Assembly (NCBI GenBank): GCA_018001635.1
Contig: JAGNHS010000006.1
Coordinates: 2,905 to 66,904, forward strand
DNA length: 64,000 nt
Reading direction: 5' to 3'
Origin: Pseudomonadota bacterium
GTDB taxonomy: Bacteria > Bdellovibrionota > UBA2428
Position 1 is the first letter of the stretch; every line of letters starts with the position of its first letter. The translations under genes and the position numbers were made by a program. The notes under the pieces are model-generated. The model saw only the letters and a list, made by a program, of their open reading frames with translations. It had not been told where the DNA came from and ran no database searches. Positions 4,293 to 49,862 of this stretch are shown here, one piece after another.

Positions 4293-6071
4293 TTATAAAA
4301 GCTTTAATGGCCCCGCGACGAGCTCTCCACCTCTGTGAATACTCGCTTGGTTGGGGTGATTCAGAGCGATTCCTGGTGAAAGCTGTGCATAATTTTCAAC
4401 GCTAGTCATTGTTGCGCGAGTTTCATAGAGCGCTTGAATGGGCAGAATGAGGTCGGCTCTGTCTGTGTAAATGCTTTGAAAAGAATCAGCCACTATAACG
4501 AGAGGGGCGCTGGCAAGATATTGTGCGAGAGCTTCAGAGCGTTTTCTTTGCGTGCTTTGAGCAAATAAAAATATGGGGCCCTTAGCTTTTTGCCCTTGAA
4601 GAGAATTTTCCAAGTACTCAATAGGGGCGAGACCTTCATTTAGAAGTCCTCGAGAATTAGTGCCAGTCCAAAGCACAAGCTGTTGGCATTGTGCAGAGGC
4701 TTGAGACATGGCCTTGAGGTCAGTATCATTTTTAGGAGCTGATAAAAGCAATAAGTCTTCTGCGCCAAGTTTAGAAAATTCAGAAGAGTCTTTGTATTCA
4801 ATCCACTGCAATTTAGATTCTCTAACAGCTTGGGCAATTTTTAATTTTAAAATTGGAATGAGTTTTTCAAGTGTGTCTAAGGAAATTGGAGAATGAACTT
4901 TTTTGACTTGAGCCCAGTTAATTTGACCGGCACCTTGTGGAGTGGCGGCCAGAGTTTTCCAATAATTTAAGAGACTCGCCGAAGCTGGGCTCGGATTGAT
5001 GACTTCAACTTTTCGCCCTCGAGCGATCCAGGAATCTCTTAATTCTTTGGCCCAAGAAATTTCTTCGTGGGGGGCGGTGTCTTCTATCCAAAATTCCCAC
5101 GCATTTTGATTGGAGTATTCTTCAATGTTTCTTTGAATCTCTTTTAATGAAACTTCTTCGAGAGCTCCATTTTTTGATCGGCGTAACATTGGGGATTGAA
5201 GTCGAAGTTCGTCGTTATTGTGAAAGTGATATCCCCATCGTCCTTCGTCACACATCCACCAACGATTGATGTTTTGATTTTTGCGAGGAGTGAGTCGTAC
5301 AATTTTTGGATTAGGTGGAGCTTTGTCGGGGCGAACGATTCCAGGGTGGCGATGCTTGGTGTCGATTTCAACGTTGCAACCCATTGAGCATCCTGTGCAA
5401 ATAGCATCGTGGCTTTTAAGTTCCCAAGGACGCGCGGCAAATCTAAAATCCTGAGCTGTTAAGGCGCCCACAGGACAGAGATCGACGACGTTTCCTGAAA
5501 ATGCGGATTTTAAGGGAGCGTTGTTAAAGACGTCTATGACGTTGGAATTACCTCGGTTGTTGACAACAAGTTCTGCTTTGCCGTCAATTTCAGAGGAGAA
5601 TCGTACACAGCGAGTGCAGAGAATACATCGTTCTTGGTCGAGAACGATTTGGTCAGAAATGCTTTTATGTTTATCTCTCAAAACTTTTTCGTCTTCCATT
5701 CGAGAGAGTGGGGGGCCATATTGATAAGTGTAGTCTTGAAGTTTGCATTCTCCACCGCGATCGCAAATAGGGCAATCTAGAGGGTGATTGAGCAGTGTGA
5801 ATTCTAAAGACGCATTTTGTCCGCTTTGAACTTTTTCAGATTGAGTGATGACTTTCATGCCTTCGGCAACAGGGGTCGAGCAGGCTGTAGCCAATTTAGG
5901 CATGCCTTCAACTTCTACAAAACACATTCGGCATTGGCCCACTACCGTGAGGCCTTCATGATAGCAAAAATAGGGAACATGTTGTCCCGCTTTTTTGGTA
6001 GCCTTAATGATGTTGGACCCCTGGGGAACGCTAACTGGGATTCCGTCTACTGTAAGATTTATATCGCTCAC
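4293..6071 (-). CDS. nuoG: NADH:quinone oxidoreductase 75-kDa-subunit-like (NuoG-like) protein with a truncated C-terminal domain
   Basis: N-terminal 2Fe-2S ferredoxin fold (CYHEGLTVVGQCRMCFVEV), the His-Cys3 cluster motif HPLDCPICDRGGECKLQD, CILCTRCVRF and CPVGALT. It is only 592 aa, whereas NuoG is about 900 aa. Confidence 0.75.
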   Translation of the reverse strand: MSDINLTVDGIPVSVPQGSNIIKATKKAGQHVPYFCYHEGLTVVGQCRMCFVEVEGMPKLATACSTPVAEGMKVITQSEKVQSGQNASLEFTLLNHPLDCPICDRGGECKLQDYTYQYGPPLSRMEDEKVLRDKHKSISDQIVLDQERCILCTRCVRFSSEIDGKAELVVNNRGNSNVIDVFNNAPLKSAFSGNVVDLCPVGALTAQDFRFAARPWELKSHDAICTGCSMGCNVEIDTKHRHPGIVRPDKAPPNPKIVRLTPRKNQNINRWWMCDEGRWGYHFHNNDELRLQSPMLRRSKNGALEEVSLKEIQRNIEEYSNQNAWEFWIEDTAPHEEISWAKELRDSWIARGRKVEVINPSPASASLLNYWKTLAATPQGAGQINWAQVKKVHSPISLDTLEKLIPILKLKIAQAVRESKLQWIEYKDSSEFSKLGAEDLLLLSAPKNDTDLKAMSQASAQCQQLVLWTGTNSRGLLNEGLAPIEYLENSLQGQKAKGPIFLFAQSTQRKRSEALAQYLASAPLVIVADSFQSIYTDRADLILPIQALYETRATMTSVENYAQLSPGIALNHPNQASIHRGGELVAGPLKLL

Positions 6072-6086
6072 TTTTTAAAAAACCTC

Positions 6087-7793
6087 TTACCTATCAATTT
6101 CGCCTAAAACGGGATCGAGACTTGCAATGGTTGTGACCACATCGGCGATGAGTTTTCCTTTAACGAGTTCGGGAATAATTTGTACGCTTCTATAAGAAGG
6201 ACTGTGTATACGAGTGCGCACGGGTTTGTTGCCGCCATCACTTTTAATGAAAAATCCAAATTCTCCTTTGGGATTTTCAATGGCGGAATAAATCTGGCCC
6301 ACAGGAGCTTTGAAACCCTCGGAGATAATTTTAAAGTGCCAGATTAGAGCTTCCATTTGAGTGTAAACTTGATCTTTTGTTGGAATCACAACTTCAGGAA
6401 CATCGGCATTAACAGGGCCAGTAGGAAGATTGTTAATGGCTTGTTCGAGAATTTTGATACTCTCACGCATTTCAAGTTGGCGTACGAGATATCGATCGTA
6501 AGCATCGCCGTTGTCACCTAGGGGAACTTTAAAATCGAAATCTGAATAGGCCAAATAAGGCATGTTTTTTCGAAGATCCCAATTGATGCCAGTGGCTCTT
6601 AAGTTCGGACCACTAATTCCGTATTGCAGAGCTAGTTTTTGGCTTATGGCGCCTACACCGCTAGTGCGATCAATCCAGATACGATTGTTAGTAAGCAAAT
6701 GCTCCATGTCGTCGAGTGTGGCGGGTAATTGCTTTAGAAACGCTTGTAGTTCAGTAATGAATTCTTTGCTGGCGTCGCGAGCCACTCCACCAATGCGTGT
6801 ATAGCTTGTCGTGAATCGATGCCCAGCCAGTTTTTCAATGAGATCGTAAATTTTTTCACGTTCATCGAAGGTGTGGAAGAAAACTGTGCCGGCTCCAACG
6901 TCGAGAGCGTAAGTTCCAAGAGCCAATAGATGGGAACTAATTCTTGCTAATTCACAGGCGATCACTCTTACGTATTGAGCGCGTTTTGGAAGTTCAATTC
7001 CAAAAAGTTTTTCAACAGCCATGGCGTAGCTCACATTGTTAGAAAGCGGCGCTAAGTAGTCGAGTCGGTCAGTGTATGGAATAAATTGATGGAATCTTTT
7101 ATTTTCAGCAATTTTTTCGAAACCGCGATGGAGAAATCCAATATCGGGAATGCATTGAATCACTGTTTCGCCATCGATTTCTAGAATCATTCGGAGCACC
7201 CCGTGAGTGGAGGGGTGTTGTGGGCCCATGTTTAAAATTAAAGTGTCGTTATGCTTTTTTTGTATAGGAGTGCTGAGTTTTGGAAGGCTTAGCTTAACGG
7301 GTTCGTCGGATCGACTGATGGGATTTAATCCATGACTGCGCTTAATCTTTTTTTGCACCGTAAATAGAGCTTGCATGAGAGCTTCGGGACGGGGGGGACA
7401 ACCCGGAACATAAACATCTACGGGGAGAATGTGGTCGAGGCCCTGAACTACGGGATAGCTATCGAACATTCCCCCAGTGCAAAGACAGGTGCCCATGGCG
7501 ATGACCCATTTGGGTTCCATCATTTGCTCGTAAACACGTCGAACAACGGGCGCCATTTTGTATGTGAGAGTACCAGCCACGATCATAAGATCGGCTTGGC
7601 GCGGAGAGAATCGAAGCACTTCGCTTCCAAAGCGTGACATATCAAATTTAGGACCAACGGTGGCCATCATTTCGATAGCGCAACAAGAAATTCCCATAGG
7701 CATAGGCCACAGACTATTGGCCCGACCCCAATTGATGAGATCCTCCAAACGAGTTGTGATTATGGATTCGCCTAGTTTTGACTCAAGACCCAT
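6087..7793 (-). CDS. Fused NuoB (20 kDa, N2 Fe-S) and NuoD (49 kDa) complex-I subunits
   Basis: Residues 1 to about 165 carry the NuoB motifs [21 protein letters not shown] and VPGCPPRPE. After a short linker comes NuoD ([17 protein letters not shown] ... DPVLGEIDR). There is no NuoC segment and no NiFe-binding cysteines. Confidence 0.8.
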
Positions 7794-7795
7794 TT

Positions 7796-8164
7796 TTACA
7801 AAGTCTCCTCAAGATGTTCGTCTGCATCATCTTCTTCGCTCAAAGCGGCAGGTTTTTTCTTCATATCTGACTTGGATTGAAACTGTCGAATAAGGTGTTC
7901 TTCTCTTTGAAGAAGTTTGTCGATATTTTCAATTTTAATAATGAGGCGATCGATTTGCAGATCGGATATTTTGCCCTCTTTAGTGTGTTGAACTGCAATC
8001 TCACCAATTTTTTGTAAAAATTGAAGGCGCTGTTGCTGAAGTCTGGTCGCGTCATAAAGAGTTTGTGCAATTTTTCCGGTTCTAGAGAGTTCTTCGGCCG
8101 GACGAGCAAAAAATCGCCGAAAAGCATTGCTGATACTACGGGTAAAACTCTTTGATGTGCTCAT
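7796..8164 (-). CDS. hypothetical coiled-coil protein with an acidic C-terminus
   Basis: 122-aa ORF lying 2 nt upstream of nuoBD on the same strand. No recognisable family. Confidence 0.4.
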
Positions 8165-9338: not shown

Positions 9339-10040
9339 TTGATTCATATGAGTAGGAGACTTCAGATGAGATTTATCAACTTAAATTTAAAAACCTTTGG
9401 ATTTGTCATGCTAGGCTTTCTAGGTCTGTTTCAGACTCCATGGGTGCATGCGGGAAAACCTTCAAAGTCTCCTGTTGTTTTGTCTATGGATCCTAGGAAA
9501 TGGAATTTTTTATACAGTGTGGGAATGCCACGAAATCCGAGAGCAAGCTCATCGAATTCTTGGATTTTTGATTTCCCCGATATTAGCCAAGGGGAAATTG
9601 ATTATATAACTCAAAGCGTTTCTGGTGCAATTATGGGCACTCTCTTGAGAGCGGATATCAAAATTACAACTTTAGGGAATCCGGTGTTTGACTATAAAAC
9701 TGAGAGTGGAAACACGTGCGATTTTCCCGCTCATGCAAGATTCTACATTCAGCGTGCGTGGACAAATAATAATTATGATCGATGGTGGGCTAATCCCATT
9801 GCTTTCAAATTAGAATCTGCTTCTGCAACTTTGAGTGTGCCTTTAGATCCTAGCCAATGGACAGACACTTGGGGACATCGCGGAAGCGAAGATCTAGCTT
9901 CAGTGGCTGGTTTTAAGAAAGCTCTCAATGAGGTGACTCAAATTGGTTTAACCTTTGGTGGAGGTTGTTTTTTTGGACACGGGGTTAGAGTTGTTGGTGG
10001 CACCGCTGATTTTGAAGTGACTCAATTTAAAATTGAATAA
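9339..10040 (+). CDS. hypothetical secreted protein
   Basis: Signal-peptide-like segment (FGFVMLGFLGLFQTPWVHA). No recognisable domain. Confidence 0.45.
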   Translation: MIHMSRRLQMRFINLNLKTFGFVMLGFLGLFQTPWVHAGKPSKSPVVLSMDPRKWNFLYSVGMPRNPRASSSNSWIFDFPDISQGEIDYITQSVSGAIMGTLLRADIKITTLGNPVFDYKTESGNTCDFPAHARFYIQRAWTNNNYDRWWANPIAFKLESASATLSVPLDPSQWTDTWGHRGSEDLASVAGFKKALNEVTQIGLTFGGGCFFGHGVRVVGGTADFEVTQFKIE

Positions 10041-10042
10041 CT

Positions 10043-12979
10043 TCAATTTAGAGGTAGAACTAAAACGACCCAGTCTTTATCGAGGTCATTGGGTGGATTG
10101 CCCAGGTCTTTACGGGCTCCCTTAGTTTTAATTTCTCGAATGCTACCATTTTCGAAATTTCCACCACTTCGAGGATTAAACCAGAGCACTCTATATTTTC
10201 CTTCGTAGAGTTCTAGGGTGATTTTCTTAACTTTTGAGTCTTTGTAAACTACATGTTCATTGTTTGGAGTAGTTGCAATTCTAATGGGGGGATCATTTCT
10301 CTCATTTGTTGTAATTCGTAAATCCCAAAATGGGATTTTAAATTTCACAAAAAAATCATGGGCGATCTTAACTTGTTTCCAGAGCTTTTCACGTGTTCGG
10401 AAATCTTCAAGAGATAAAGATCCATCACTACCATTTGTGATTAATTCAAAGCCAGCTCCACCGGCAATGAGAGTCGGCCAAATGAATTCCTCTCTTTCAA
10501 CGTTATGGTCGGGATCAAGGCTGTCGGCAAAACCTGTACGAACAGCAGTCCCAGGTTCGTCGAGTGTTACTACCCATGGATGCTGATTTTTATTGGACCA
10601 ATATATCCATTTATAAACACTGTCAGAGCTTGAAACAGAAATTTGTTGGTTGCGATAACCTACATCGAATTCTTCAACGTTGTTTTGAAGGGAAGCTCCG
10701 TCAATGTTTTTATCTCCGAGTAAGCCAGAGTAAATTTTGTTTTTTTGCTTAGGTCCTGTGTGCACCACAATTGGGTGTTTGTAGGGATCTAAATTTTTAA
10801 TATAAGCAGCGAATTCCTTCAGGCGATCTGTTTTGTGATTAGTTTCTTCTCCTAAATTCCAAAAGAGTGCTGGATGATGAGCGAATCTTGCGATGAGTTC
10901 TCGATAATAAAGTTTTCTTTCGAGTGCTAATTTACCTGAATCAAGAACTTGGTCGACTTCACTTTCTTCAAGAACAAGATGTTGGGCGACTCCCATTTTA
11001 TCCATATGATTAAAAACTAGGTTCCATTGGGAGAGTTTACTTACGTCAAATCGAGTTTTTTCATCGGGGTTTATCCAAGGGAAAACGTCGTTGCCGTCGC
11101 CCCCATCAGAGTTATAAGTGAGAAAGTATTGAGTGTTTATTCCTTGGGAAGAAAGATAATTGATAGCGCCTATAATTCCTTTTCCTTTGCCATCGTCCCA
11201 CGTGGGGTCGCTTTCTTTCCAATCTTGAATATGGGCAGAGTAGAGGTGAGTTCTGTCTCCAGAGTTTTTCAAGTTTGGAACATGATAGGTGTTGTCGAAT
11301 TCTTTATAGGCTAAAAAATTTTCAGGATCGCTCGTGCCTGCTTTTAGAAAATATTTACCATTTGAGAATTTAAAAGCATTTTTTCCTACATATTTCAGAA
11401 ATCCATAATTACTAAAATCTAAGCTGCTATCGGTTTGTTGAGGAGTGACTAAAAATTCTCCTTTGTAGCCATGAAAGGCGAGAGTCTGAGATGGATCTTT
11501 GCTGAGTGCTTGGTCGAATTCATGAGTCAGAGCAATATTGTTTCCATATCGGAAAGTGACTGTAAAAGAACAGTTTCCTTGTATCTCTGGGCGATAATAG
11601 GCACGCCAAATTCGCCCACTGCTGGAATGAGAATTTTCACTATATCCATCGGCCGCATAAAATCCAGGGATGAGTAAATTTTGACCGCTGCAATTCATGT
11701 AGACATCCATACGATAATTGCTAAAGGGATTGTCTTCGGATTTTTCATCTAGATTGGGTCCCTGACAATCCACTTGCCAAGTTTGCCATTTCTTAACAAC
11801 TTTGGCGGCTCTGCAAAGTTTTTGTCTTTCCTCTAAATAAACTTTTGGAAATACTTTTTTAGTTTTAACTAATGTTTTTATGGGCATTGAGTGATTGAGT
11901 TTTTCAAAAAATCTATTGAGAGCTTTAGAGGCAGGAGCTTCAGTGACCTGATTTATTCTGGCGATAACCATTTTCCATTCAGGAATCACAATACAGAGAT
12001 TGTTGTTGCTTCCCATGGCCGCAAACGTTTTGGCTGGAGCTTTGTCCCATAGGGGTTTTTCTAAGCCATTAACCCACCATAGATATCCGTAGTGGCCCGG
12101 CCCGCTATCCCAATCACCCTTTTCGCTCTGTAGATGCGGTGATATCTGATTCTTTGTAGCCGCTTCAATCCAAGTTTTTGAGAGAATTTGTTGGCCTTTC
12201 CAAACTCCTTTATTTAAATAAAGGTGGCCCAGTCGAGCCAAATCCAAGGCACTGATTTCAAGCCCACGATTATTTCCAGAGGCAGAAGAAACCGGAAAAT
12301 TAAAGCCATAGTTGTCGTCTGGGGTCCAGGCGGTTTCCCAGTTAAAATTTTGCATCTCTAGGGGGCGAGCTATGCGATCTATAAAAATTTCTGCAAAGTT
12401 TTTTTGTGCGGCTGCAGAGAGTGCAAAACCCAGTATGTTGACCGAGTCGTCAGAATAAGACCATTGCTCAGCGGGAGAAAACTTTTTTTCAATGGAAAGC
12501 CAAGGGGTTTTAGATCCATCGCCACCTTCATCGACTCTATAACGACTGCCTTCAGCAAGGTATCCGGATTGCATAGTGAGTAAGTGTTCTAGAGTGACTT
12601 CGGGATAATTTTTATTCATCCAAGGCAAAAGCTCTGAAGCCTTTTGATCGATATTTATTTTTTTATCGTCGATGAGAATTCCTGCAACAGTTGAGGTGAA
12701 AGTTTTTGTGGCCGACCAAATTCGGTGTGATTGAGCCGCTTGAGATCCTTGGTAAATCAGGCGCCCATCGACAGCTATAACGGCTTCATCCATGGGAAAG
12801 GATCTTGATAATTCTGAAAGTGCATCTTTAAAAAGAATGGGGCTAATTCCAAATTTTTCCGGTGATTCTGTTATCCAATTTTTTTCTGGATAAACAACAC
12901 TGTTTTCATTGGAGAGACTCTTAGATGAATTAACTAGAAAAATAAAAAATAAGCTTATTTGATATTTTTTCAAATTCAT
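10043..12979 (-). CDS. Secreted two-module protein. The N-terminal module is a serine hydrolase of the beta-lactamase family. The C-terminal module is a putative glycoside-hydrolase-like TIM-barrel (DUF5060/DUF4038-like).
   Basis: Signal peptide. SxxK active-site motif (SATKTFTSTV) within a beta-lactamase-like N-terminal region of about 350 aa. The C-terminal region of about 600 aa has WNLGEE and a GH-like pattern. Assignment of the C-terminal domain rests on recollection only. Confidence 0.5.
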   Translation of the reverse strand: MNLKKYQISLFFIFLVNSSKSLSNENSVVYPEKNWITESPEKFGISPILFKDALSELSRSFPMDEAVIAVDGRLIYQGSQAAQSHRIWSATKTFTSTVAGILIDDKKINIDQKASELLPWMNKNYPEVTLEHLLTMQSGYLAEGSRYRVDEGGDGSKTPWLSIEKKFSPAEQWSYSDDSVNILGFALSAAAQKNFAEIFIDRIARPLEMQNFNWETAWTPDDNYGFNFPVSSASGNNRGLEISALDLARLGHLYLNKGVWKGQQILSKTWIEAATKNQISPHLQSEKGDWDSGPGHYGYLWWVNGLEKPLWDKAPAKTFAAMGSNNNLCIVIPEWKMVIARINQVTEAPASKALNRFFEKLNHSMPIKTLVKTKKVFPKVYLEERQKLCRAAKVVKKWQTWQVDCQGPNLDEKSEDNPFSNYRMDVYMNCSGQNLLIPGFYAADGYSENSHSSSGRIWRAYYRPEIQGNCSFTVTFRYGNNIALTHEFDQALSKDPSQTLAFHGYKGEFLVTPQQTDSSLDFSNYGFLKYVGKNAFKFSNGKYFLKAGTSDPENFLAYKEFDNTYHVPNLKNSGDRTHLYSAHIQDWKESDPTWDDGKGKGIIGAINYLSSQGINTQYFLTYNSDGGDGNDVFPWINPDEKTRFDVSKLSQWNLVFNHMDKMGVAQHLVLEESEVDQVLDSGKLALERKLYYRELIARFAHHPALFWNLGEETNHKTDRLKEFAAYIKNLDPYKHPIVVHTGPKQKNKIYSGLLGDKNIDGASLQNNVEEFDVGYRNQQISVSSSDSVYKWIYWSNKNQHPWVVTLDEPGTAVRTGFADSLDPDHNVEREEFIWPTLIAGGAGFELITNGSDGSLSLEDFRTREKLWKQVKIAHDFFVKFKIPFWDLRITTNERNDPPIRIATTPNNEHVVYKDSKVKKITLELYEGKYRVLWFNPRSGGNFENGSIREIKTKGARKDLGNPPNDLDKDWVVLVLPLN

Positions 12980-16355: not shown

Positions 16356-18068
16356 ATGGGTTATACTTTTAATCTGCGTAAAATTCATGTCTCTTTAATG
16401 GGTGTCTTTTTAGCTTTGTCGACTCAAGCTGAAGTCTGTAAAAATCTGAAAATCACTCCTTCTATTATATCTACATTTAATAAATATAATAGAGCCACAA
16501 AAGACTATGAAAATCTTGGTCCTGAGGCTTTTGTAAATTCCATGGCTCTAACAAAGCTCGATTCAAAATTTATGATTTCCTTATTGAAGGGACTTCCTCC
16601 TCTTCCGAAACTTTCATGGGATCAAAAAGAGTTTTGGGTATTGCGCCTTAGAGATAAAAACAAAACAGCAGTTCTAGATTTTTGTAAAATTGATGATAAC
16701 GAAGTGAGTGTGAATGGGTATAAATTCAAAATATCCGAGAAAATGAGTGTAGAAGAATTGGCTCAGTTTTTAGAACCACTTTTTCCGAAACAAAACAATA
16801 TTGGGTTTCTTTTGTGGATACAAAATCAGATTATACCCTCTGCCGAAGCCGTAACAGTAATGGGCGGAGCCATGATTGGTGCCTTGGCGGGTCTTGCAGG
16901 TATGCTTCTTATGAATGTATTTAACGGAAATTCGTCTAGTAAAACGCAATCTCAACCCGCACCTCACATTACGGTGTCTGATGTGGGTTCAGGAGGCTCT
17001 CTACCTGGGCATACTGGCGCTGGAGCTTCTCCTGCTGGTGGAGCTCCTGCTGGGAGCGCGCCTGGAGAGGCTCCCCCAGATGCTCAAAATCCTGCTGGCG
17101 CAAATTCTGGGGGTGCACAACCTAATGGAGGAGCTGCCGGCTCAGGTGCGGGCGGAGCAAAACCCAATGCCACGCCAAACGCTCCATCAGCTAATAATGG
17201 CGAAACAAAGTGTAGCGATAAAACGACACCTATAGCAGGAGATAGAAAAGCAGAGCTCAGTAAACTTTCAGACGATCAAATCAAAAATTTTCAATGTTTT
17301 TCAAAATATCATGAATTTGGAAATTCAAAACTTCAAGTAGCCCAATGGAATGATGGTGAAGATTGGCTATCTCTAGGGGTGGGTCATTATATTTGGTATC
17401 CTAAGGAGGGAGAAAAAAAATATACTGAGAGCTTCCCGGATCTCATTAAATTTGCATGCAGTAATGGTTACACAGGCAGTCTACCCAAAGAGATTGGATA
17501 TACGGGAGGCAATCCAGTTTTAGGAGTCTGTCCTTGGAATAGCAAAAAGGAATTCGAAGATCCTAAAACTAAAAATTCAGATGAGTTAAAAAATATTCAG
17601 AACTTTTTATTAGGCCAAGATATGCAAAAGCAACAAGCGCTTTTTCAATACAACCGACTTTTAGATTTTATGGATAAGTGGAAACCAGCTAATAAAGTTG
17701 AAGAACATGCAAAAGAGTTTGCAGGTAGACTCATGCAAGATCCCAAAGGACTTTTGCAAATGATCGACTATGTGAATTTTAAAGGAGAGGGAACAGCTCC
17801 TGGTGAATACTATAAAAACAACAAGGGTGAAGTAGATCGGTGGGGTTTGAAACAGGTTTTAGAAACAGCAGTTAATGAAGGTCAGGGATTAACTTTTATT
17901 GAAGCCGCGAAAAGTACATTAAATAGAAAAATTAATACTGATCCCAAGATTTGTGAAAAACATACTAATCCTGAAGAATGTAAAAAAGACCTTAAAGCTG
18001 GTTGGGAAAAGAGAATCAACGACTATTCCAATATTGCTACGGCTCAATCGAAGTACAATTGTAAATAA
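16356..18068 (+). CDS. hypothetical secreted protein with a Gly/Ala/Pro-rich low-complexity linker and a Cys-containing C-terminal domain
   Basis: Signal peptide. A roughly 100-aa G/A/P/N-rich tract (GAGASPAGGAPAGSAPGEAPPDAQNPAGANSGG...). Its stop overlaps the next start by 1 nt (TAATG). Confidence 0.5.
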   Translation: MGYTFNLRKIHVSLMGVFLALSTQAEVCKNLKITPSIISTFNKYNRATKDYENLGPEAFVNSMALTKLDSKFMISLLKGLPPLPKLSWDQKEFWVLRLRDKNKTAVLDFCKIDDNEVSVNGYKFKISEKMSVEELAQFLEPLFPKQNNIGFLLWIQNQIIPSAEAVTVMGGAMIGALAGLAGMLLMNVFNGNSSSKTQSQPAPHITVSDVGSGGSLPGHTGAGASPAGGAPAGSAPGEAPPDAQNPAGANSGGAQPNGGAAGSGAGGAKPNATPNAPSANNGETKCSDKTTPIAGDRKAELSKLSDDQIKNFQCFSKYHEFGNSKLQVAQWNDGEDWLSLGVGHYIWYPKEGEKKYTESFPDLIKFACSNGYTGSLPKEIGYTGGNPVLGVCPWNSKKEFEDPKTKNSDELKNIQNFLLGQDMQKQQALFQYNRLLDFMDKWKPANKVEEHAKEFAGRLMQDPKGLLQMIDYVNFKGEGTAPGEYYKNNKGEVDRWGLKQVLETAVNEGQGLTFIEAAKSTLNRKINTDPKICEKHTNPEECKKDLKAGWEKRINDYSNIATAQSKYNCK

Positions 18069-19174
18069 TGAAAAGTTTATTTGTAAAATTTTTTCTATCT
18101 CTAAGAAATCTTTCTCTTCTCAATCTTATAATTGTTAGCCGTGTTTTTGCTTTCCAAGATGCCAGCGAAGAAGCCGTGCGAGCTTGGTATGTGCAAGGTA
18201 ATCCTTTTTATCCAACAGAAAGCATCAACATTCCTTCAACTGTGAATACGGGGCATCCTGAAGGGCTCGCTGTTTTTAATAATGATTATTATTTAAGTCT
18301 CATGGATGAAGATAAAACTTCTTCAAAAATTGAATGCAAACAATCTCGAATTCTTCATTTTAAAAAATTTGATTCGTCTTTAGTTTTAAAAGACGAAAAA
18401 ATTATTAGCACCAATGAACGTAATGAGTGCCATTTGGGTGGGCTTGTGTGGGGTGCTAACTATAATGAACTTTGGACAGCGTTGGCGCAATTTAAAGCCT
18501 CATCTTCGAGCACTATGCTCGCGATAAATCCTAACGATTTAAGTATTAAAAAAGAATTAAAAATAATGGATCATATCGGCTCCCAGATTTACACTCGTGA
18601 TGCTCTTTACGCTTTTAGTTGGGATTCTAGGAAGCTTTATAAAGCGGATCTCTGTGAGCATGATTTATCTAAGTGTAAGGTGTCGAAAATTTCAGAATCC
18701 AAGGCTCGCTCCAGTGCCTATCAAGATTGCAAAACATTAATCAGTGATGGGCGACCCATCACCGCATTTTGTAGTGGCTTAGACTTTGAGCCCTGGTCTT
18801 GGAACGTGATTGGCTTTTTGCGATGGGATTTATGGTGGAAAAATCAAAAGAGCTGGGAATGGCCTTTAAAATTAGAACGAACGGGCTATTTAGATTGGAT
18901 TGAAATCGACTCTAAGGGGACTCACTTATTAGGCCGCTTTAATTCGCCTAAGGTAGACGGAGTCTTTTTATCTCGCAACCCCATGGCAATATGGGAAGAG
19001 CGAAAAGATCATAAATTTAATTTAAATTTTGCTTTTGTTCCCGACGATCATCCTCGTTCTAAGCTTCTTATTTATGAAAGTGGATGGTTGGAATTTGCTC
19101 CTGTTAAAGAGAGTTCTGGCATGATTCTCCGTAATTTGTCGGGCGATGTCGATAAAATTAACAGCGATAATTAG
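18068..19174 (+). CDS. hypothetical secreted protein
   Basis: Signal peptide (MKSLFVKFFLSLRNLSLLNLIIVSRVFA). Translationally coupled to the upstream gene. Confidence 0.5.
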   Translation: MKSLFVKFFLSLRNLSLLNLIIVSRVFAFQDASEEAVRAWYVQGNPFYPTESINIPSTVNTGHPEGLAVFNNDYYLSLMDEDKTSSKIECKQSRILHFKKFDSSLVLKDEKIISTNERNECHLGGLVWGANYNELWTALAQFKASSSSTMLAINPNDLSIKKELKIMDHIGSQIYTRDALYAFSWDSRKLYKADLCEHDLSKCKVSKISESKARSSAYQDCKTLISDGRPITAFCSGLDFEPWSWNVIGFLRWDLWWKNQKSWEWPLKLERTGYLDWIEIDSKGTHLLGRFNSPKVDGVFLSRNPMAIWEERKDHKFNLNFAFVPDDHPRSKLLIYESGWLEFAPVKESSGMILRNLSGDVDKINSDN

Positions 19175-39759: not shown

Positions 39760-42700
39760 TTATTTTTTCTTCTTATTCTCTGTTTTGAATAGTTTTCTAA
39801 GAAGTTTTACAACATTCACTTTTTCTTCTTCCTCGGAGATGAGTTGATAACCTACAAAGTTATCCATTTTAGCTTTCCCGATGAGGAATTGTCCAAGGGC
39901 ATCTTCTTCGCTGTAAGCTGTAAAGTTTATAGTTCCAAAGAATCGTGAATTGCCCATAACTTTTTCAATATTAGATTGAGCTGAATCGCTAAGATCTGCA
40001 ATGAGGTCGCCAAACATGAATGTGAAACGATCGTATTCAGAATCTGGAAATTTGGCTTGCACCTCTAAGGCTTTAGCCGCGCCCACTCCATAATCTGTGC
40101 CTCCACCCAGTTGGACTTTATAGAAGTCATTTTCATGGGCTTCGTCAAAATCATAAGCCACTCCGTCAAAAGCCACGTAGGTAAAAACGATGTTTTTATA
40201 TTTGTGTTTTAAAAGTGAGCGAATGTTGAAAATGATTTCCTTCATTTTCTCTACATATCCCATCATACTTCCTGATAGGTCAGAGATAATAGTGACATGG
40301 GCAGAGATGTCGGGGTCAGGTTGCTGCCGATGATTTTTAGAATGAATGTTTTTCTTCTGTAAAAAGTCCACGCCAACTTCGAAGGGGTCAAGCTCGGAGG
40401 TATCCTCGCCCTCTTCTTCTCGAAGGTTGATCACGCCGAGTCCGAGTTTAATGGCATCGCGAACAATTTTCTTAGCCACATAGGGTTTACGGTCTAAAGG
40501 TTGAGAGCCAACAAATATTTTACGCATTTGTTCGGTTTGTCCCTTGAGTGGTCTTAGGTTGGGTAACTCAACTTCATCCTTTATGAGGCTTTGATAAAGC
40601 TCTAATGGAATTTCAATATAAGAGGGGTCGCCACCGCCGCAGCCTTGACCATTTGAGGGTTTGCCTGTGTCACTATCCTCATCGCTACCTTCGTCGGGTT
40701 CTCCGTCGCCTTCACCATCACCGTCATTTCCATCGCCAGGCTGGTTTGAGGATTTTTCAACATAGTATTCCTTGTCCTTAAGACCTTGGGGCTGCAAAAG
40801 AAGTCCATCATCAGTTACAAAGGGATTGTTGTCTAAATCATTCACTTTTGAGAGTAATCTTTTTATTCCGTTTTGCGCACGTCGATCGAAGACTATTCCG
40901 CCAACTTCAGGCAGCACTTTGAGGCTATAGCCGCTGCCAGTTCGAGTGAGGCCACCATTGTTGGCCGCTTTTGAGAATGCCGCTAAAAATCTTTCTGCAA
41001 CTTTTTGGTGATATCGATTGAGTGCTTTGAGAATTCCGTGAGGAACTTCATTGAGTGCCATAGAACCTACAACATCGTTGATGTTTTTATAAATACTACC
41101 TAGAGGATCAATTTCAATTCCTTCTTTGTTTTTGAGAGTGCTGACAATTCCCTTTGGAACTTCAGTTTGATCGATATGGTAATCTATTAAAAATTCTCTT
41201 AAATTTTTAAATAGATGACCGTAAATTTCTTTGTCTACTGTAGATTTTTCTGCAGCCTCAGGAGTCCATTCTCTAAAGCTAGGCGTTTGATGAATTTCAA
41301 TTCCTTCTTCCCAAGAAGAATTACTATCCAATATTTCCATTTTTTTAAGAGTTGAGACGTTTATTTGTCCTTCAGGGTTGACTCTTATTTTCGCTCTAGC
41401 CAAGCGATATCCAATGACTTTCATTTTAGGTTTGAAACTAAACCAGTCCCACGTCACTTCTTTTATAACATCGATGATAAGTGTGGCTTCTAATTCAACA
41501 GTTTTCCTAAGTATTTTGGCCCAACTGAGTAGAGTAGGGGCTACAGTTTTTCTATTGATGGGTGTGAAGTAACCCATTTCATTACTCACAGATAATTTCG
41601 CAACATCATCTGTCTGATTGTGCAAATTATTCCAGACAACACGCGGATAGGCGTAGGAGAGGTTCCAGTCCTGTTGCACTTGATATCGAATACGTTCAGG
41701 ATCGTGAGTGATGACCTGATAGAGGGTGCCGTCCATATAATCTTGAGGAAGAGGAGCCCCTTGTTGAGCAAGTTGGAATTTTTCTTCGTTGCTGAATTTT
41801 TTAACTAGGGCTAGGTGCCTGTTTTTGATCCATTGATCAGTCAGCTTAGAAAAAATAAACATGACATTATTGCCAAGGTTTGGATTGTTTATGATTTCTC
41901 TAGCATAATTTATAAATTTTTGATCGCGCTCCATTCCTTCCAATTTAATGTTTTCAGGGCGCCTATTGAATTCTTCTCTAATTTCTCTCCAAATTTCGAG
42001 TCCGAGAAAATAAGGATTTGTGAGTGAGGGTCGCGCTACTCTTCCAGCGAGCATCCCAATTTCAGCAGCGTCACCAAAACTTCGTGCATAGTCGGGGTGA
42101 TGTGAGAAAATAATTTCCTCAACGAGCATGGCAAAACCTTCATTGAGTAACTTTGTGTTAACGGCACCAGGAATAAAGCGATTCATTTTTTCAAATTTTT
42201 TCGCCATTTCTAATTTCCAAGGTGCGATATCGCTTGGTAGTTCACTAACAAAGGCTTGAAGAAGGCTTACCGTTTGCTTTCCTGAACTCTGACTAGTCTG
42301 AACAAGGCCATCGCGCCATTGATTGAATCCTATGGGTCTGTCAGCCTTTAAGTCTTTAGGTTCTACATAGGCACCGCTCCAAACATCTTGTGCCATTTCA
42401 AGCGAAAGTAAATGGAAAAACCAATCCTCTACTTCTCGAGGATCTTCATATTTTCCAATATCTGTCATTAGTTCATCGAGCTCAACAGAAACTCCAACGC
42501 GATCATGGGAAGTTTTGTGTTTAAAGTAAGAATTCACATGGAAGAAATTATGGCCATAGACGTGAGCCAATATGTTCATGAATAATATGGGACTTAAGTT
42601 GCTCAAGTAATAGCTATGCTGTGTGCTGTGGCCCGAGAGTACAAATTCTAAAACCCCTTGAAGATTTCGTGCTTGATTGAAAATTGCGGCCCCGTCACTC

Positions 42701-42969
42701 CAGCTGCCGACAGGGTAACGATTCACCGCCGCCATTCCAGCCACTGAAGACGGATTGAGTAATTCTACAATATGTTTTTTTATGCCATTTAGAAGACCTA
42801 ATTTATCGGCGATGTCATGAACTTCAGCTAAACGTTTATGATATTCCGCTGCGTCAGGTTGGTTGTGCGAGTCCGCTATTAAGTGCTCTTGGCAGCTGAA
42901 AGAGTGTTGGGCAAAGATGAAGCTAAGGATACTGAGAAACTTTAGAGTGTTTAATCTAATAAAGCTCAT
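39760..42969 (-). CDS. Fusion protein with an N-terminal SpoVR/YcgB-family domain and a C-terminal YeaH/YhbH (DUF444, vWA-like) domain, preceded by a signal-peptide-like N-terminus
   Basis: SpoVR motifs LAHVYGHNFFHVNSYF, NEGFAMLVEEII and NPYFLGLEIWREI. An acidic/Gly linker (DGDGEGDGEPDEGSDEDSD...GCGGGD) is followed by ELPNL and the DUF444 vWA core HVTIISDLSGSMMGY...KYKNIVFTYV...FYKVQLGGGT. Its start overlaps the upstream stop (ATGA). Confidence 0.7.
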   Translation of the reverse strand: MSFIRLNTLKFLSILSFIFAQHSFSCQEHLIADSHNQPDAAEYHKRLAEVHDIADKLGLLNGIKKHIVELLNPSSVAGMAAVNRYPVGSWSDGAAIFNQARNLQGVLEFVLSGHSTQHSYYLSNLSPILFMNILAHVYGHNFFHVNSYFKHKTSHDRVGVSVELDELMTDIGKYEDPREVEDWFFHLLSLEMAQDVWSGAYVEPKDLKADRPIGFNQWRDGLVQTSQSSGKQTVSLLQAFVSELPSDIAPWKLEMAKKFEKMNRFIPGAVNTKLLNEGFAMLVEEIIFSHHPDYARSFGDAAEIGMLAGRVARPSLTNPYFLGLEIWREIREEFNRRPENIKLEGMERDQKFINYAREIINNPNLGNNVMFIFSKLTDQWIKNRHLALVKKFSNEEKFQLAQQGAPLPQDYMDGTLYQVITHDPERIRYQVQQDWNLSYAYPRVVWNNLHNQTDDVAKLSVSNEMGYFTPINRKTVAPTLLSWAKILRKTVELEATLIIDVIKEVTWDWFSFKPKMKVIGYRLARAKIRVNPEGQINVSTLKKMEILDSNSSWEEGIEIHQTPSFREWTPEAAEKSTVDKEIYGHLFKNLREFLIDYHIDQTEVPKGIVSTLKNKEGIEIDPLGSIYKNINDVVGSMALNEVPHGILKALNRYHQKVAERFLAAFSKAANNGGLTRTGSGYSLKVLPEVGGIVFDRRAQNGIKRLLSKVNDLDNNPFVTDDGLLLQPQGLKDKEYYVEKSSNQPGDGNDGDGEGDGEPDEGSDEDSDTGKPSNGQGCGGGDPSYIEIPLELYQSLIKDEVELPNLRPLKGQTEQMRKIFVGSQPLDRKPYVAKKIVRDAIKLGLGVINLREEEGEDTSELDPFEVGVDFLQKKNIHSKNHRQQPDPDISAHVTIISDLSGSMMGYVEKMKEIIFNIRSLLKHKYKNIVFTYVAFDGVAYDFDEAHENDFYKVQLGGGTDYGVGAAKALEVQAKFPDSEYDRFTFMFGDLIADLSDSAQSNIEKVMGNSRFFGTINFTAYSEEDALGQFLIGKAKMDNFVGYQLISEEEEKVNVVKLLRKLFKTENKKKK

Positions 42970-45900
42970 TTTTTCTCCTCAGGAATCAATAAATATTCGC
43001 AACGATCGCCGAATCCAGCATGATTTCTTTCCAATTCCGGAACCTTATCTCTTATGAGATCATTACCTTCTAAAAGTTGTGTGACGTATTCAACAGTAAG
43101 AGGTGAGAGTGGAGATTCTTCAGTTTTAAAGGCAAATTCAGCGAATTCAGCTCGGGTGCTGAGCGCGGGTTCGTCTATGATTTCTTCGAGCATTTTCATC
43201 ATGAAAACGTTGGCATTGTCCCAGGGTAGATTGGCAATGGCTTGGTCTATAGCCCAAAGAAAAATAATCGCTAAATCACTTGAGCTCAAATTTCTGTGGA
43301 GTCCTTTTTGTACTTCTTTGAGTTTGGGATTTAAAAAACCCTGATTAGAGACAAACATTTGAAAGAGGTCTCTTATTTTGTCTGTAGTGCTTGCAAATTC
43401 TTCACGCACTTCTTTTGAGTTTTTCATGGAATCAAGCCAAGCTTGAGAGTTGGATTCTTGAAATCCATTGGATTGATAAAATTTGTAAAACAAATTTTTC
43501 ATGAGCGATTCAATGTTGATAATTAAGCGGCTTATGTATTCACGTTGTCCTTCTTGTTCCTGAATTGAGCCTTTAATTTTTAAAAAATCATCTAGGGAAT
43601 CGCTCTCAAGAACGCTAGACGCGGGAAGTTTGAAAGGAATAACGGGTTTTGAATTATGATGAGCATCCATGAGGTCTTGGAATTCGGAAAGGAAACCAGA
43701 GTGGTTATTTATTTTTAATCGAACTGGGGATAGATCCAAATTCCAAAATCTTAATTCTGGACGATTTCTTAAGTTGAGATAGACTCCCGTGATGAGCGGT
43801 TTGAGGTAGTACATTTCATTTTGAAGACTCGCCCTAAAAAACTTATGATTTTGGATTGAGTTTATGAAATGATTATAAAAATTGATTCTAAAAGAGTTAG
43901 AATTAAATTCTGCGAAATCAAGTCTTCCGCGAAGGTTGTCAAAGGTGACTGGTTTTACAACAACATGTTTCTTAATTTGGTTTCTTAATGTGGTTGAATT
44001 TATAGTGGAACCACCTTCTTCCACTTGATGATCATCATTGTACCATTCATCAACATTCCAATCGTCTTTGAGGTCTTTGCTGTCATGGGTATCGCTTTTA
44101 GAGCTAGTCACATAATAGAGTGGAGCGGGGGCTAGAGAGTCATCTTTAGCTTCTGTGAATAGAGAGTTAGTAACGGGCATTAAAAAGTTTCGCGCGTGAG
44201 CTTTGGGGAAAATTTGTGCAATTTCAGAAAGAATATGTGGATTCACTAAAATCAGTTTGTTTGAAAGAGTTAATTCTTGGAGACTTCGAGCTCTGATTTT
44301 TGAAATCAAACCCGAGGCTTTGGCCTCACGTGGAAAATCACCAAAGTTAATGAGATCAGAAAAACGAGCTAAGATGGAGGGCTCATATTGAGCACCTTCA
44401 ACTTGTGAAAGTGCTGCAATGATTTGTGATTCAATAGAACTAGCATCATCGATATATTGATCTCTAATTTCACGATTGGATGCAGGGTTGATGGTTACAA
44501 ATAAAGAGATATTTCTAACAGGAATTTCGATGGTCATTTTATCTTCAAGACGAGAGACTCTGACCAAGTTGTTGTTCAGTAAGTTTTGGATATAAGACAT
44601 AACTCGACTGAGAACGTTGGCGTTCTTAGCTTTGTGAAGATCGTCAATAAGTATGAAACCTCGGTAGCCGAGAGGAAGTGATAAGAAATTGTCTAAGTGT
44701 TTCAGTGCGTCTTCAACATATAAACTTTTTCCAGTGGCTTCTTCTTTTTTATCTACCAAATCTTCTACTTTTAGGAAAAAGGCTTGAGCATTTTCATCTA
44801 AAGGTCTGTTGAAGTCGTAAACTTTTATATCGAGTAATTGGATGAGCTTCTCAAAGAAAAAAGTTTTTCCTAAACTTGTTTCACCGAAAAATACGGCTGA
44901 TGAGGGAATTTGCTTTGAACTATCGGACCCTTGAGTTTGCGAAAGAATAAGCCTGAAAATTCTTTCTTTGAGATCCAGTTGACCAGCATATCCTAGTTTT
45001 GTGAGATCCACTGCGGCTCGAGCGGTGTCTTTAATTTTATGAAGAACGTCTTCGGGTTCAAGGGATTTATAATTTAAGGGGATGGGGAAAACTTTGGCTA
45101 AAAATCTTTCTACATAGTTTTCGTCAATCACTCGACTTCTTCTGAGTTTATGGTCGTCGACTAATGATTTTCTAAAAATGGAATAGGAGCGTACAAAGGC
45201 TTCGATGGGTTCTTGATTGAGTGAATTGGCAACAGCTTCAATTCGATTGGCTAAAAATTTGGTGATGTTCAAAAACGGAGCGCTGTTTCTTTCGGCGCCA
45301 GATTCGTTTCCATTGTATCGAAATGAGTAATTCAGAGTTCTAATGTCTTCTCGATAGAATAAATTTCTCAAAATGTTAGAGCGGTGCTCTACGCTTGGAT
45401 ATTCAAGTCGAACTATTTCAAAATCTTTTTGAAGATCCATAAAATGCGACTCAAGGCCTAAATCTTTTTCTAAATCTTCGATTTGTTCAGGAGTGGCTAC
45501 AATAATTTCTGAAACGCTTGGGGTAGCTTCATCTCTTAAGCGCCATTGCTTTTTTAATTTAGGTTGGATTCTTCTACCTTCGGAGGCCAACCACCACATG
45601 ATGTGAGGGAAAATTGTATTGGGTTTGTCTATGTCGCTACGAGAAGAACTGTTTCCATCTTTGTCACTGCCTTCGTTGGGGCTGTTGGCGCTCGATTGAG
45701 CCTCGGAAGCCGTTTCAGCTAATAGCTCAGTTTTTTTCATGGCCGCAGGATCGCTAATTCTAAAAGGTTTGATGTCGCTTTTTTCTCCAACTAGTGGACG
45801 TTCATTGCGTAAAAGGTCGCTCGCATCTGCTAAAAGAACAACACTATTTTCTTGGCTGAGTCTTCTCATGGCGTCTAGATTGCCAAAGATTTCTTCTTGA

Positions 45901-48900
45901 TGAACTTTTCCACCTTGTGGATATCTGAATATTGAAAGATGGGGATTTCGAAAATTCCAGGAAGTGTTTAAATTTGGATTTCCATTAGTATCTCTTTCTA
46001 GGGCCACGTTGTAGCGACTCGACCAATGAGTCATTAAAAAGCGAAGCATGAGTTTTTTGATGTTTTCAGGGACAACTATGATTCTATGTTTAGGTTTTTC
46101 AGGTTTTTTAGAGAGCTCACTCAAAATGGGTCTTAAATTTGGGAAAACTTGAAGATCGTCTGAGGTGAGCGCACTCACCGACATTCTTCTGATGTCAGGA
46201 GTGGATCTCGGAGTGTTCGGAGGCCAGTTGTACCATTGTGAGGTTAAGAATCTTGCATCGATTTCAAATAGACCTTTGTCTACTAAGCCTGCTTTGAATT
46301 CATGAGGATGAGCTTCTTGAAGTTTTAAAAGTTTTTTAGGAGTTGTTAGAACAACAGTTGTCACAGATTTGAAGGAGTCTGATGGAGAGCTTAAATCTTT
46401 AAGGTGTCGTCCTTTTCCTTCCGTGGCTAAGAGAAAAAGTCCAGAAAGTTTATGGGGCGAAGAGGGATCGTAAATGTGATCAGACGAGGTTGAGCGTGCT
46501 GATTCGGAGAAGCTTTCTTCATCGAGTTCATCGCCACCTTGGTTTGTTTCTACAACTTCTGGTTCATCTTCTTCATGCTTGTGTTTAGTTCCTTTGTTTC
46601 TGCCGTCGTTCTCTTCTTCATCCTCTTCGTCATCTTCTGTCTTTTTGTTTGAAGCTTTAGACTCGGGATCATTATTAGCGCTTACGGTTTCGATTCCCAT
46701 TTGTCTTTCAGAGTCGCTTGAGGCGTAGTCGAGTATGCTAAACGAGGATGCACTGTCACTATCTTCAGAGTTTTTGCCGTCTGTTTCTAATATGAAAGTT
46801 TGTAAAAGCTCGTCGGAGCCTGCAAATAGTACGTTTTGTGTTGTTGATTCAGAGGCAAGTTTTAATTCCTTGCGCATTTCCCGAGCATCGGATTGATGGT
46901 CAAAGAAGTAGAGTTCAAAATCGTTTCCACCGGGTTTCCATTTAAGGGACCAACCTGTTTTTTTGTTATCGAGTTTAAGGAGCATGAGGTTATAAAAGTT
47001 GGCGTAGTCTTCGTCAGACACTACAAGGAAAGTTTTTTTACCTTTTTTAGAAGGATCTACGACTAAGGAATCTAGGTACTCGTCTAAGAGTGGGTAAAGT
47101 GGTCCTTTCCCCCCAGGTCCGAAATTTAAATCTTTATAAGTTTTAGCTTGCTCAGCTTCATTTCCGTCGAGTGCTTTGGAAAGTGTTGAATTAATTGAGC
47201 GTAATCCAGTGGAGGATGAAATGCTCCATCGACTTCCTATCCAAAATAAGCGACCCTCTTTTTCGTTTTCCTGAACAATTCTTTCTTTAAGGCGAATATT
47301 AATATTTTCTTTTGAGGGAACAACAAGTTTAGAGACGTAATTAAAACATCTCATTTTATATTTTGCAGAAAAATAATCTTCATTGGGAGTGTCAACCCAA
47401 TACAGGGCACCATTGCCATCGGGAAGCACTCGGTCGCTAATGCGATTGGCGGTCACATAACTTTTTGTAAGCCAACCTGAGGAATCTGGAATGTTGTTGG
47501 CTGTGAATTCAATTTTTCCAGCTTTGAGTTGAGATTGAATTTCGTATCCTAGCAGATACACGCCACCCGTGTTCTGACGAGTCCTTTTGAGAAAGAGCAT
47601 AACGTAAATGCTGTTAGCGTGCTTTCTTAAACCTTTAAAAACTCTTACACCCTCAATTTGAGAGAATGAAAATGGAAGCTCTCGTGTGGCGAAGAAAGTG
47701 TTCTTTATGTTTTCTCCAACTCGACCCTCGTAATTAAAAAGGGTCACAAGATTGAATTTTCCTTCTAAATTAGGTTGCTGAGAGTTGTTTGGAAGCATTC
47801 CAAACAAATGGATTTTGAAGGCTTCCAATTGCTTCGAAGATTCGCTGAGTGGAAGATGAATGTCAGTGGTGTATAGAACAGCACGAATGGAATCTTTGGA
47901 AATGGATGTTCTTGAATTTTTCTTTGTCTTTGTTTTTGAGCTATTGGAATAGATAAGCTGTCCGGGAATGAATGATGAATCATCTTTGTTTAAATGCGAT
48001 GTTGAATCAGCAGGTGTTTCGTGTCGATCTGCGGAATGCGTATCCTCAAGATAGACTCCGGTTTTTTCATTGAGTTGTGATTGTTTGTCGTTATTGAATT
48101 CTCGATAAACAACATGGGGGCTCATGATTACGGGAAACTCGTTTTTAGCTTGAAGAAATACTGTTTTCTTTTTGGGGTCGCTTTCAGAGACGTTAAGATA
48201 GGCGGTGACTCGCAGTCCTCCGGGATTTTTTTGAGAATCACTTCTATAGGTTTTGGGCCCCACGCGAGGAGTGCTGTTGTCGAAAACTAAACCAAGGTTT
48301 TCCACATTCTTGATTCGTAATTCTAGTTCTTCTTTGCTGAAACTGTACGTATTCGATATAACCTGCATGTCTTTAACGCTGACGTGACCCATGGATTCTT
48401 CAAGTTCAATCGCGAAAGTTCCCCCTCCAGGATAATATTGAGTTTTTCCTGATAAAATTAAATAATGTTTTTTGTAAACCGCACCAGAAATGAGTTCGTC
48501 ATCAGGGGTGTTGTCTGAAAATCCAAAAATGGGTGCTGATTTTCTTTTTTCGATTTTAGGTTGTGGAAGATCAAAGGACTCTAGAATTATAACGTTGTCG
48601 TTGTTGAAAGGGTCGAATTTGAGTTTGGTAAATTGTTCTTGAACTTCGACAACCTGAATACTTCTGTTTCTGGATTTTAGTCTTAACAGAATGCTTTTAT
48701 CCAATGAGAATAAAACCTCAACAGAGGAATCGTTTGAGAGAGATCGAGTTAAAAACTTTTTATTGTCTTGATCCCAGCTGAGTCTTCCTTTTTGGGGTGG
48801 AGTACCTTCATATTGAAAGGAGAGCCCATCTCCTAAGGGTTCAAAGAATTGAGTGACTCCCGAAATGGCCATGTTAGAAACTTGAGGTTCGGGTCTTTTC

Positions 48901-49844: not shown

Positions 49845-49862
49845 TTTCCAGCTTTACTCAGT

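Follow-up and report, generated by a model that had tools for sequence, protein, structure and literature searches.

A NuoB-NuoD fusion without a NuoC domain, encoded beside NuoG in Bdellovibrionota: probable peripheral-arm genes of a complex I with scattered genes

Introduction

NuoC (30 kDa/Nqo5) counts among the 14 core subunits regarded as universal in complex I. Here, a locus is analyzed in which NuoB and NuoD are fused directly to each other and are encoded next to NuoG, on the minus strand of positions 4293-8164 of a 64,000-nt stretch of Bdellovibrionota DNA (contig JAGNHS010000006.1, assembly GCA_018001635.1), the whole of which is referred to as the window. The closest described systems are the complexes I with NuoBCD fusions (“NUO12”, PRK13292) of Verrucomicrobiota, Planctomycetota (Brocadia, Scalindua), Bacteroidota, and Ignavibacteria; both B-C-D and C-D fusions have already been described (PMC4758237, PMC4453560). 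They resemble the present locus in that NuoB is fused upstream of NuoD and that NuoG is short, at 545-581 amino acids (aa). Those fusions, however, include a NuoC domain, measure ~790 aa, and stand in complete operons, whereas here C is missing and only G, in other lineages also I, stands alongside.

Three further systems are relevant for comparison. Within the same phylum, a nuoAHJKLMN cluster occupies the same site in all studied Bdellovibrionota, predatory and non-predatory, and predatory members carry a second, E. coli-like set of 14 nuo genes, which is split in Bdellovibrio (PMC13147790, a Peredibacter genome paper from 2026). The cluster is a membrane-arm-only set, and B, D, G, and I are all among the subunits that it does not encode; that paper mentions neither a BD fusion nor a link of B, D, G, and I to nuoAHJKLMN, the pairing being proposed in the present study. 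According to work cited in PMC4453560, the complex I of Campylobacter and Helicobacter has kept NuoG while NuoE and NuoF are missing, and its donor is flavodoxin and not NADH. NuoG without NuoE/F is the point of likeness. In contrast to the present locus, their genes stand together in a single operon that includes nuoC, and the places of NuoE and NuoF are taken by two unrelated proteins; conserved proteins of such a kind were not found next to BD-G-I in the loci examined here. Cyanobacterial and chloroplast NDH-1 lacks an N-module and is encoded by genes distributed over several loci (PMC4758237). It differs in having NdhJ, a NuoC homologue, and no NuoG, and the NdhH model scores 388 in the window against a cut-off of 583. 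Ech-type group 4 [NiFe] hydrogenases, which are complex-I-like, are not known to have a NuoC homologue either; their large subunits bind NiFe through cysteine motifs, whereas the fusion has no such motifs and possesses the quinone ligands.

No description of a C-less B-D fusion or of a C-less B-D-G-I operon was found in full-text literature searches. A piece of a split complex I is otherwise ordinary; the unusual part is that NuoC, as well as NuoE and NuoF, is missing from this type of operon. Considering the evidence given below, nuoBD and nuoG are probably peripheral-arm genes of a complex I whose genes are scattered over the genome.

The NuoB-NuoD Fusion and NuoG

Three closely spaced open reading frames (ORFs) are located on the minus strand of the locus, at 7796-8164, 6087-7793, and 4293-6071. 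The second, supported by ORF call, Pfam, and NCBIfam, is nuoBD (6087-7793, minus strand), which encodes a fusion of 568 aa. The NuoB domain comprises aa 1-155 (7329-7793), as assigned by PF01058 and nuoB_fam, and the NuoD domain aa 184-568 (6087-7244), as assigned by TIGR01962 and alignment to Nqo4. Between them, in the position taken by NuoC in B-C-D fusions, lies a linker of ~28 aa (aa 156-183; 7245-7328), which alignment reveals to be weakly conserved. In Pfam, Oxidored_q6 (PF01058, NuoB) matched aa 37-144 and Complex1_49kDa (PF00346, NuoD) aa 298-568 with 375 bits, and no Complex1_30kDa (PF00329, NuoC) domain was found within the fusion, a result that was the same with NCBIfam. The description of NuoD as fused straight to NuoB, given in a first-pass annotation made from the letters of the window alone, is thus borne out.

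Among the NCBIfam models, NuoD (TIGR01962) reached 552 bits, above the cut-off of 459.35, and the NuoB family (nuoB_fam, TIGR01957) reached 229.6 bits, above the cut-off of 142.7. The model of NuoB/C/D fusions, NF009808 (“NUO12”), scored 713 bits in two matched stretches that skip the C part; this is below the cut-off of 1156 because the C part is absent, the fusion measuring 568 aa against ~790 aa for NuoBCD triple fusions. Scores for FpoD (355 against a cut-off of 600), NdhH (388 against 583), and the NiFeSe hydrogenase (21 against 600) were all below their cut-offs. Judged by these models, both halves of the fusion are genuine Nuo subunits and not homologues from Fpo, NDH-1, or hydrogenases.

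The cofactor and quinone ligands are retained in both halves. Fusion aa 9-152 align to residues 17-160 of Nqo6 of T. thermophilus, with C37, C38, C103, and C132 matching the N2 [4Fe-4S] ligands C45, C46, C111, and C140, including the tandem CC, which agrees with the earlier statement that NuoB keeps all N2-cluster cysteines. Fusion aa 179-568 align to residues 20-409 of Thermus Nqo4 with no net indel, and H197, Y246, and D298 correspond to the quinone-site residues H38, Y87, and D139. In an alignment of 15 fusions of different lineages, the N2 cysteines and these three residues are invariant, as are R24, S27, W29, P30, P32, and G34 in a conserved N-terminal segment of NuoB; conservation is low in the linker (alignment columns ~170-215). 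No NiFe-binding cysteine motifs were present: the NuoD domain contains just two cysteines (C214 and C280), and its C-terminus reads DPVLGEIDR.

Downstream of nuoBD, after a gap of 15 nt, follows nuoG (4293-6071, minus strand; 592 aa), identified by Pfam, NCBIfam, and alignment to PDB chains. It begins with GTG, and a Shine-Dalgarno-like AGAGG is situated 11-12 nt upstream of this start. Fer2_4, NADH-G_4Fe-4S_3, and Fer4_Nqo3 matched above their cut-offs, together with a weak match to Molybdop_Fe4S4, and aa 4-304 align to 75-kDa/NuoG chains of the PDB with E ~1e-70. The ligands of N1b (C36, C47, C50, C64), N5 (H96, C100, C103, C109), N4 (C149, C152, C155, C199), and N7 (C225, C228, C232, C274) are complete, all 16 being present; 15 of the 16 cysteines in the protein, together with H96, fall in these motifs. 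A short, divergent molybdopterin-like domain forms the C-terminus, with PF00384 at 22 bits (cut-off 24), and the full-length model TIGR01973 gave 408.5 bits, below its cut-off of 470.05. NuoG of E. coli has 908 aa and that of Thermus 783 aa, whereas 545-581 aa is found in the complete operons of the nearest canonical relatives. Since these related complete operons have an equally short NuoG, the low score and short C-terminus represent a trait of the clade and not decay. The earlier view that the N-terminal Fe-S domains are kept and the C-terminal domain is shortened therefore stands, but this “truncation” has no force as an argument.

The first ORF (7796-8164, minus strand) encodes a hydrophilic, probably coiled-coil protein of 122 aa, for which no Pfam or NCBIfam match was obtained. 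The first-pass annotation had ascribed the entire range 4293-8164 to the fusion and NuoG; this is correct for nuoBD and nuoG, but 7796-8164 is a separate ORF and no part of the fusion. It lies directly upstream of nuoBD, its TAA stop codon being followed by two nucleotides and then by the ATG of nuoBD (TAA-aa-ATG). The gene spacing and Shine-Dalgarno-like sequences would fit a single transcription unit. At the same position in a related locus (L002), whose BD is 81% identical to that of the window, a 124-aa ORF (9615-9989) is 40% identical to the 122-aa protein over 89 aa. This small coiled-coil-like ORF upstream of nuoBD is fast-evolving and clade-specific, being absent in other lineages, and could encode an accessory or assembly factor. 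Locus L002 also has an unannotated ORF of 422 aa after nuoG, with no Pfam match and no counterpart in the window.

Gene callers disagree on the fusion. In the protein record P0061, on a contig of 80,073 bp, the same gene is given as a NuoD-only product of 429 aa that begins at the internal M140, and annotation pipelines name the fusion just “subunit D”.

Relatives of the Fusion and Their Gene Neighborhoods

The fusion is not a solitary case. Clustering at 90% identity gives more than 120 groups of full-length, C-less fusions of ~570 aa that are 58-99% identical to that of the window; clustering at 50% collapses them into one family. They originate from metagenome-assembled genomes (MAGs) labelled Bdellovibrionota/Bdellovibrionales, Krumholzibacteria, “Nitrospirae”, and “Pseudomonadota”. 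Among the matches listed, the nearest canonical relatives are NuoBCD fusions with 50-59% identity, which are encoded in complete A-BCD-E-F-G-H-I-J-K-L-M-N operons. A rough neighbor-joining tree built on the NuoD domain places the C-less forms, whether fused or not, in a common group that is separate from the BCD clades. Three more distant proteins, P0444, P0492, and P0388 (553, 507, and 668 aa; 33-39% identity), each produced one continuous match spanning both B and D; they may represent B-D-type fusions that arose independently in other families, either complex-I-like or related to hydrogenases.

Gene neighborhoods were examined for 13 BD-type loci, with flanks of up to 10 kb per side or to the nearer contig end. 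BD-G is the arrangement in the clade of the window and BD-G-I that of most other loci, with BD-I and BD alone seen once each. In two high-GC lineages among the 13, one labelled Eisenbacteria, B-D-G-I is present in unfused form, likewise without C. Within these flanks, A, C, E, F, H, and J-N were absent from all 13 loci. Where I is adjacent, its product is a true NuoI, as can be seen from 40-50% identity to NuoI of complete operons and the typical N-terminal segment. A vestigial NuoC was considered in the longer NuoB or NuoD ORFs of two unfused operons (L007 and L009) and rejected, as Pfam detected no NuoC domain in them.

Two of the neighborhoods display additional features. On a 3.6-Mb high-GC contig (L004, 10001-20212), rnfA/E, rnfB, rnfC, and an rnfD-like gene come directly after BD-G-I on the same strand, with apbE nearby on the opposite strand; an rnf neighborhood occurs at this one locus of the 13. 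On a contig of 2.9 Mb (L085), a solitary canonical nuoB (within 16745-18722; 166 aa; four N2 cysteines; 56% identical to NuoB of Scalindua) overlaps the start of a 502-aa FAD_binding_4/FAD-oxidase_C gene, 5 kb downstream of BD-G-I. A second putative nuo set is thus also scattered in L085.

The isolation of the locus was confirmed within the window itself. By tblastn against all 64 kb, the 13 E. coli Nuo proteins found only B, D, and G, and the same was true of 153 Nuo ORFs from 14 closer canonical operons; the BD family is ~42% identical to NuoD of E. coli type. A 99%-identical contig from a Bacteriovoracaceae MAG (L005) extends ~3.9 kb past the left end of the window, and this extension contains no nuo gene but a peptidase, an outer-membrane-like protein, and a 128-aa 2x[4Fe-4S] ferredoxin. 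As the first-pass annotation had claimed, then, no NuoC/E/F or membrane subunit is encoded near nuoBD and nuoG in the 64 kb and the ~3.9 kb of left flank, and the neighbors (tRNA-Leu, 2-oxoglutarate oxygenase, APH-type kinase, BioY, and TonB) are unrelated. Its proviso that the remaining nuo genes might follow contiguously just outside the window is not borne out on the left side, over the ~3.9 kb available through L005.

The 128-aa dicluster ferredoxin (L005 20572-20958, ~2.8 kb to the left of window position 1) was considered as a substitute for NuoI. It matches NuoI at the cluster motifs alone (E 1e-4 to 1e-7), and the N-terminal region typical of NuoI is missing; because of this motif-only match, and because a true solitary NuoI exists in the clade, the candidate was rejected.

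Location of the Partner Subunits

A profile of the BD-type NuoI recovered a NuoI of 160 aa, P0238. Its longest-contig value of 1,536,195 bp is shared with P0055, a BD protein 79% identical to that of the window. In three assemblies, the gene for P0238 has no other nuo gene beside it and is flanked by smpB and a gene for an M28 peptidase. Since nuoI is solitary and BD-G is paired, the nuo genes of the clade are dispersed as single genes and pairs. Moreover, a solitary nuoI is sensible only as part of a dispersed complex, which supports a scattered complex I.

For the membrane arm, metagenomes were scanned with a degenerate DNA pattern in which the 3' end of nuoH is directly followed by the 5' end of nuoJ, with no nuoI between. 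The scan yielded 120 loci, essentially all with true H-J junctions, nine of which are A-H-J-K-L-M-N clusters. A NuoH profile built from metagenome A-H-J clusters led to a Bdellovibrionaceae MAG (GCA_020635235.1), in which two complete A-H-J-K-L-M-N clusters are arranged in tandem on one strand (JACKAF010000001.1, 2129-16800; L216), with paralogues 27-45% identical. Over 21 kb at this site, genes of the peripheral arm (B, C, D, E, F, G, or I) were absent. It can be observed that the two gene sets are complementary, because AHJKLMN clusters need B, D, and I, which the B-D-G-I module supplies; together, AHJKLMN and B, D, G, and I make up 11 of the 14 core subunits.

The same scan also revealed gene arrangements of another kind. 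In many otherwise large nuo operons among the metagenome loci L096-L215, nuoH is directly followed by nuoJ and nuoI is missing. For example, six of them (L111, L131, L165, L178, L211, and L212) read A-B-CD-E-F-H-J-K-L, without G and I, one (L214) reads A-C-D-E-H-J-K-L-M, without B, F, G, and I, and others have ...F-G-H-J.... Relocation of nuoI and nuoG seems to be common in soil and sediment bacteria.

Proposed Enzyme and Alternative Explanations

If nuoBD and nuoG belong to a scattered complex I, the subunits they encode would constitute the quinone-reducing and Fe-S-wire part of its peripheral arm, with N2 in NuoB, the quinone pocket in NuoD, and N1b, N4, N5, and N7 in NuoG. Electrons would enter at NuoG, pass through N1b, N4, and N5 to N6a/N6b of NuoI, encoded as a solitary gene elsewhere, and reach N2 in the NuoB domain. 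Quinone would be bound and reduced where the NuoD and NuoB domains meet NuoH, and the arm of NuoA, H, J, K, L, M, and N from the separate nuoAHJKLMN cluster would couple this electron flow to proton pumping. We infer from the gene content that such an enzyme could be assembled from BD-G, NuoI, and the AHJKLMN products, without NuoC/E/F of its own. If it has no NuoE/F of its own, either a donor other than NADH would dock on NuoG or an N-module would be borrowed. Preservation of both the quinone pocket and the NuoB N-terminus suggests that the module still sits on NuoH, as it is expected in that case only.

In these respects, the first-pass annotation was right in proposing a non-canonical electron-transfer module: a B-D fusion lacking C does exist and recurs, with no NuoC/E/F or membrane gene near it. 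Its term “orphan” is apt with regard to position but no further, as nuoI is likewise solitary in the clade and the Bdellovibrionota possess nuoAHJKLMN clusters.

Several points weigh against the proposal of a scattered complex I. The longest-contig values of the NuoH matches and the BD matches did not overlap, and hence gave no same-genome link of nuoBD-G to a membrane arm. NuoH of the A-H-J type falls in two separate groups in a rough neighbor-joining tree, and not in one tidy lineage. Since predatory Bdellovibrionota have a second set of 14 genes (PMC13147790), either membrane arm might pair with BD-G-I. As with nuoI, solitary genes for NuoC, NuoE, and NuoF might be present at other sites in the genome, in which case “C-less” would hold for the operon and not for the enzyme. 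Furthermore, an AlphaFold2 model of the fusion, built from the 15-sequence alignment, had a predicted local distance difference test (pLDDT) score of 61, which was too poor, and it was not used for the linker.

A stronger form of the proposal is put forward tentatively, and we regard it as somewhat doubtful: BD-G-I and nuoAHJKLMN would define a distinct C/E/F-less lineage of complex I in several phyla, consisting of 10 polypeptides (11 core-subunit equivalents), with the B-D linker or nothing at the position of NuoC and with electrons fed into NuoG by a donor other than NADH, be it ferredoxin, flavodoxin, or a protein of the clade itself, for instance the product of the 122-aa ORF. If true, NuoC would be dispensable for building a Q-module, and electrons from a source other than the NuoEF flavoprotein could come in through NuoG. 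The membrane-arm-only nuoAHJKLMN clusters of the Bdellovibrionota would also be explained, which would lead to a model, open to testing, of a second respiratory complex I in predators. If NuoC, NuoE, and NuoF are encoded elsewhere, the case reduces to a scattered operon and an unusual gene fusion, which is still useful for annotation because pipelines label the fusion only as “subunit D”.

Alternatively, NuoBD, NuoG, and NuoI could be isoforms of the Q-module and Fe-S wire for a complete 14-subunit complex I of the organism, sharing its NuoC/E/F and membrane arm and used, for example, according to the phase of growth or predation. The second full nuo set of predatory Bdellovibrionota would provide such an enzyme (PMC13147790), and the presence of both BD-G-I and a solitary canonical nuoB in L085 demonstrates that paralogous sets coexist in scattered form. 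We nevertheless consider this unlikely. A separate AHJKLMN is found in non-predatory members also (PMC13147790) and needs B, D, and I of its own, complex I clades seldom exchange subunits (Spero et al., PMC4453560), and identity of the BD family to E. coli-type NuoD is just ~42%. In addition, a NuoB and NuoD joined by 28 aa may leave no room for a partner of NuoCD type.

It is also conceivable that BD-G(-I) is a soluble or peripherally bound Fe-S oxidoreductase which has no complex I membrane arm, or which docks on another complex such as Rnf. Membrane nuo genes were adjacent in none of the 13 loci, as would be expected of such an enzyme, and in L004 rnfA/E, rnfB, rnfC, and rnfD, with apbE, lie beside the module. 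That Rnf adjacency is confined to one of the 13, however, and H197, Y246, and D298, as well as the NuoB N-terminal segment at the NuoH interface, would be needless without NuoH and yet are invariant. Identity to canonical NuoB (~67%) and NuoD (55-59%) is as high as among true complex I orthologues, and complementary AHJKLMN clusters do exist. An enzyme of this kind is accordingly judged quite improbable.

Finally, a decaying, non-functional remnant of a lost nuo operon, which the first-pass annotation had offered as its second option and which the location among unrelated genes and the NuoG score below the TIGR01973 cut-off (408.5 against 470.05) might suggest, can practically be dismissed, given open, full-length frames with all ligands intact, full-length homologues of 58-99% identity in several phyla with a recurring B-D-G(-I) operon structure, spacing like that of translationally coupled genes with Shine-Dalgarno-like sequences, and a short NuoG that is usual in related complete operons.

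Additional Observations

Two other regions of the window, both on the minus strand, were noted. At 39760-52463, three large co-directional ORFs encode a PrkA-like kinase of 866 aa, a protein of 2292 aa without a Pfam domain, and a protein of 1069 aa that is SpoVR-like and carries a DUF444 (YeaH-like) part. Judging from these domain matches, this is an unusual, expanded PrkA/YeaH/SpoVR stress gene set. At 10043-12979, a protein of 978 aa combines a beta-lactamase/transpeptidase-like domain with DUF5060 and a collagen-binding-like C-terminal domain.

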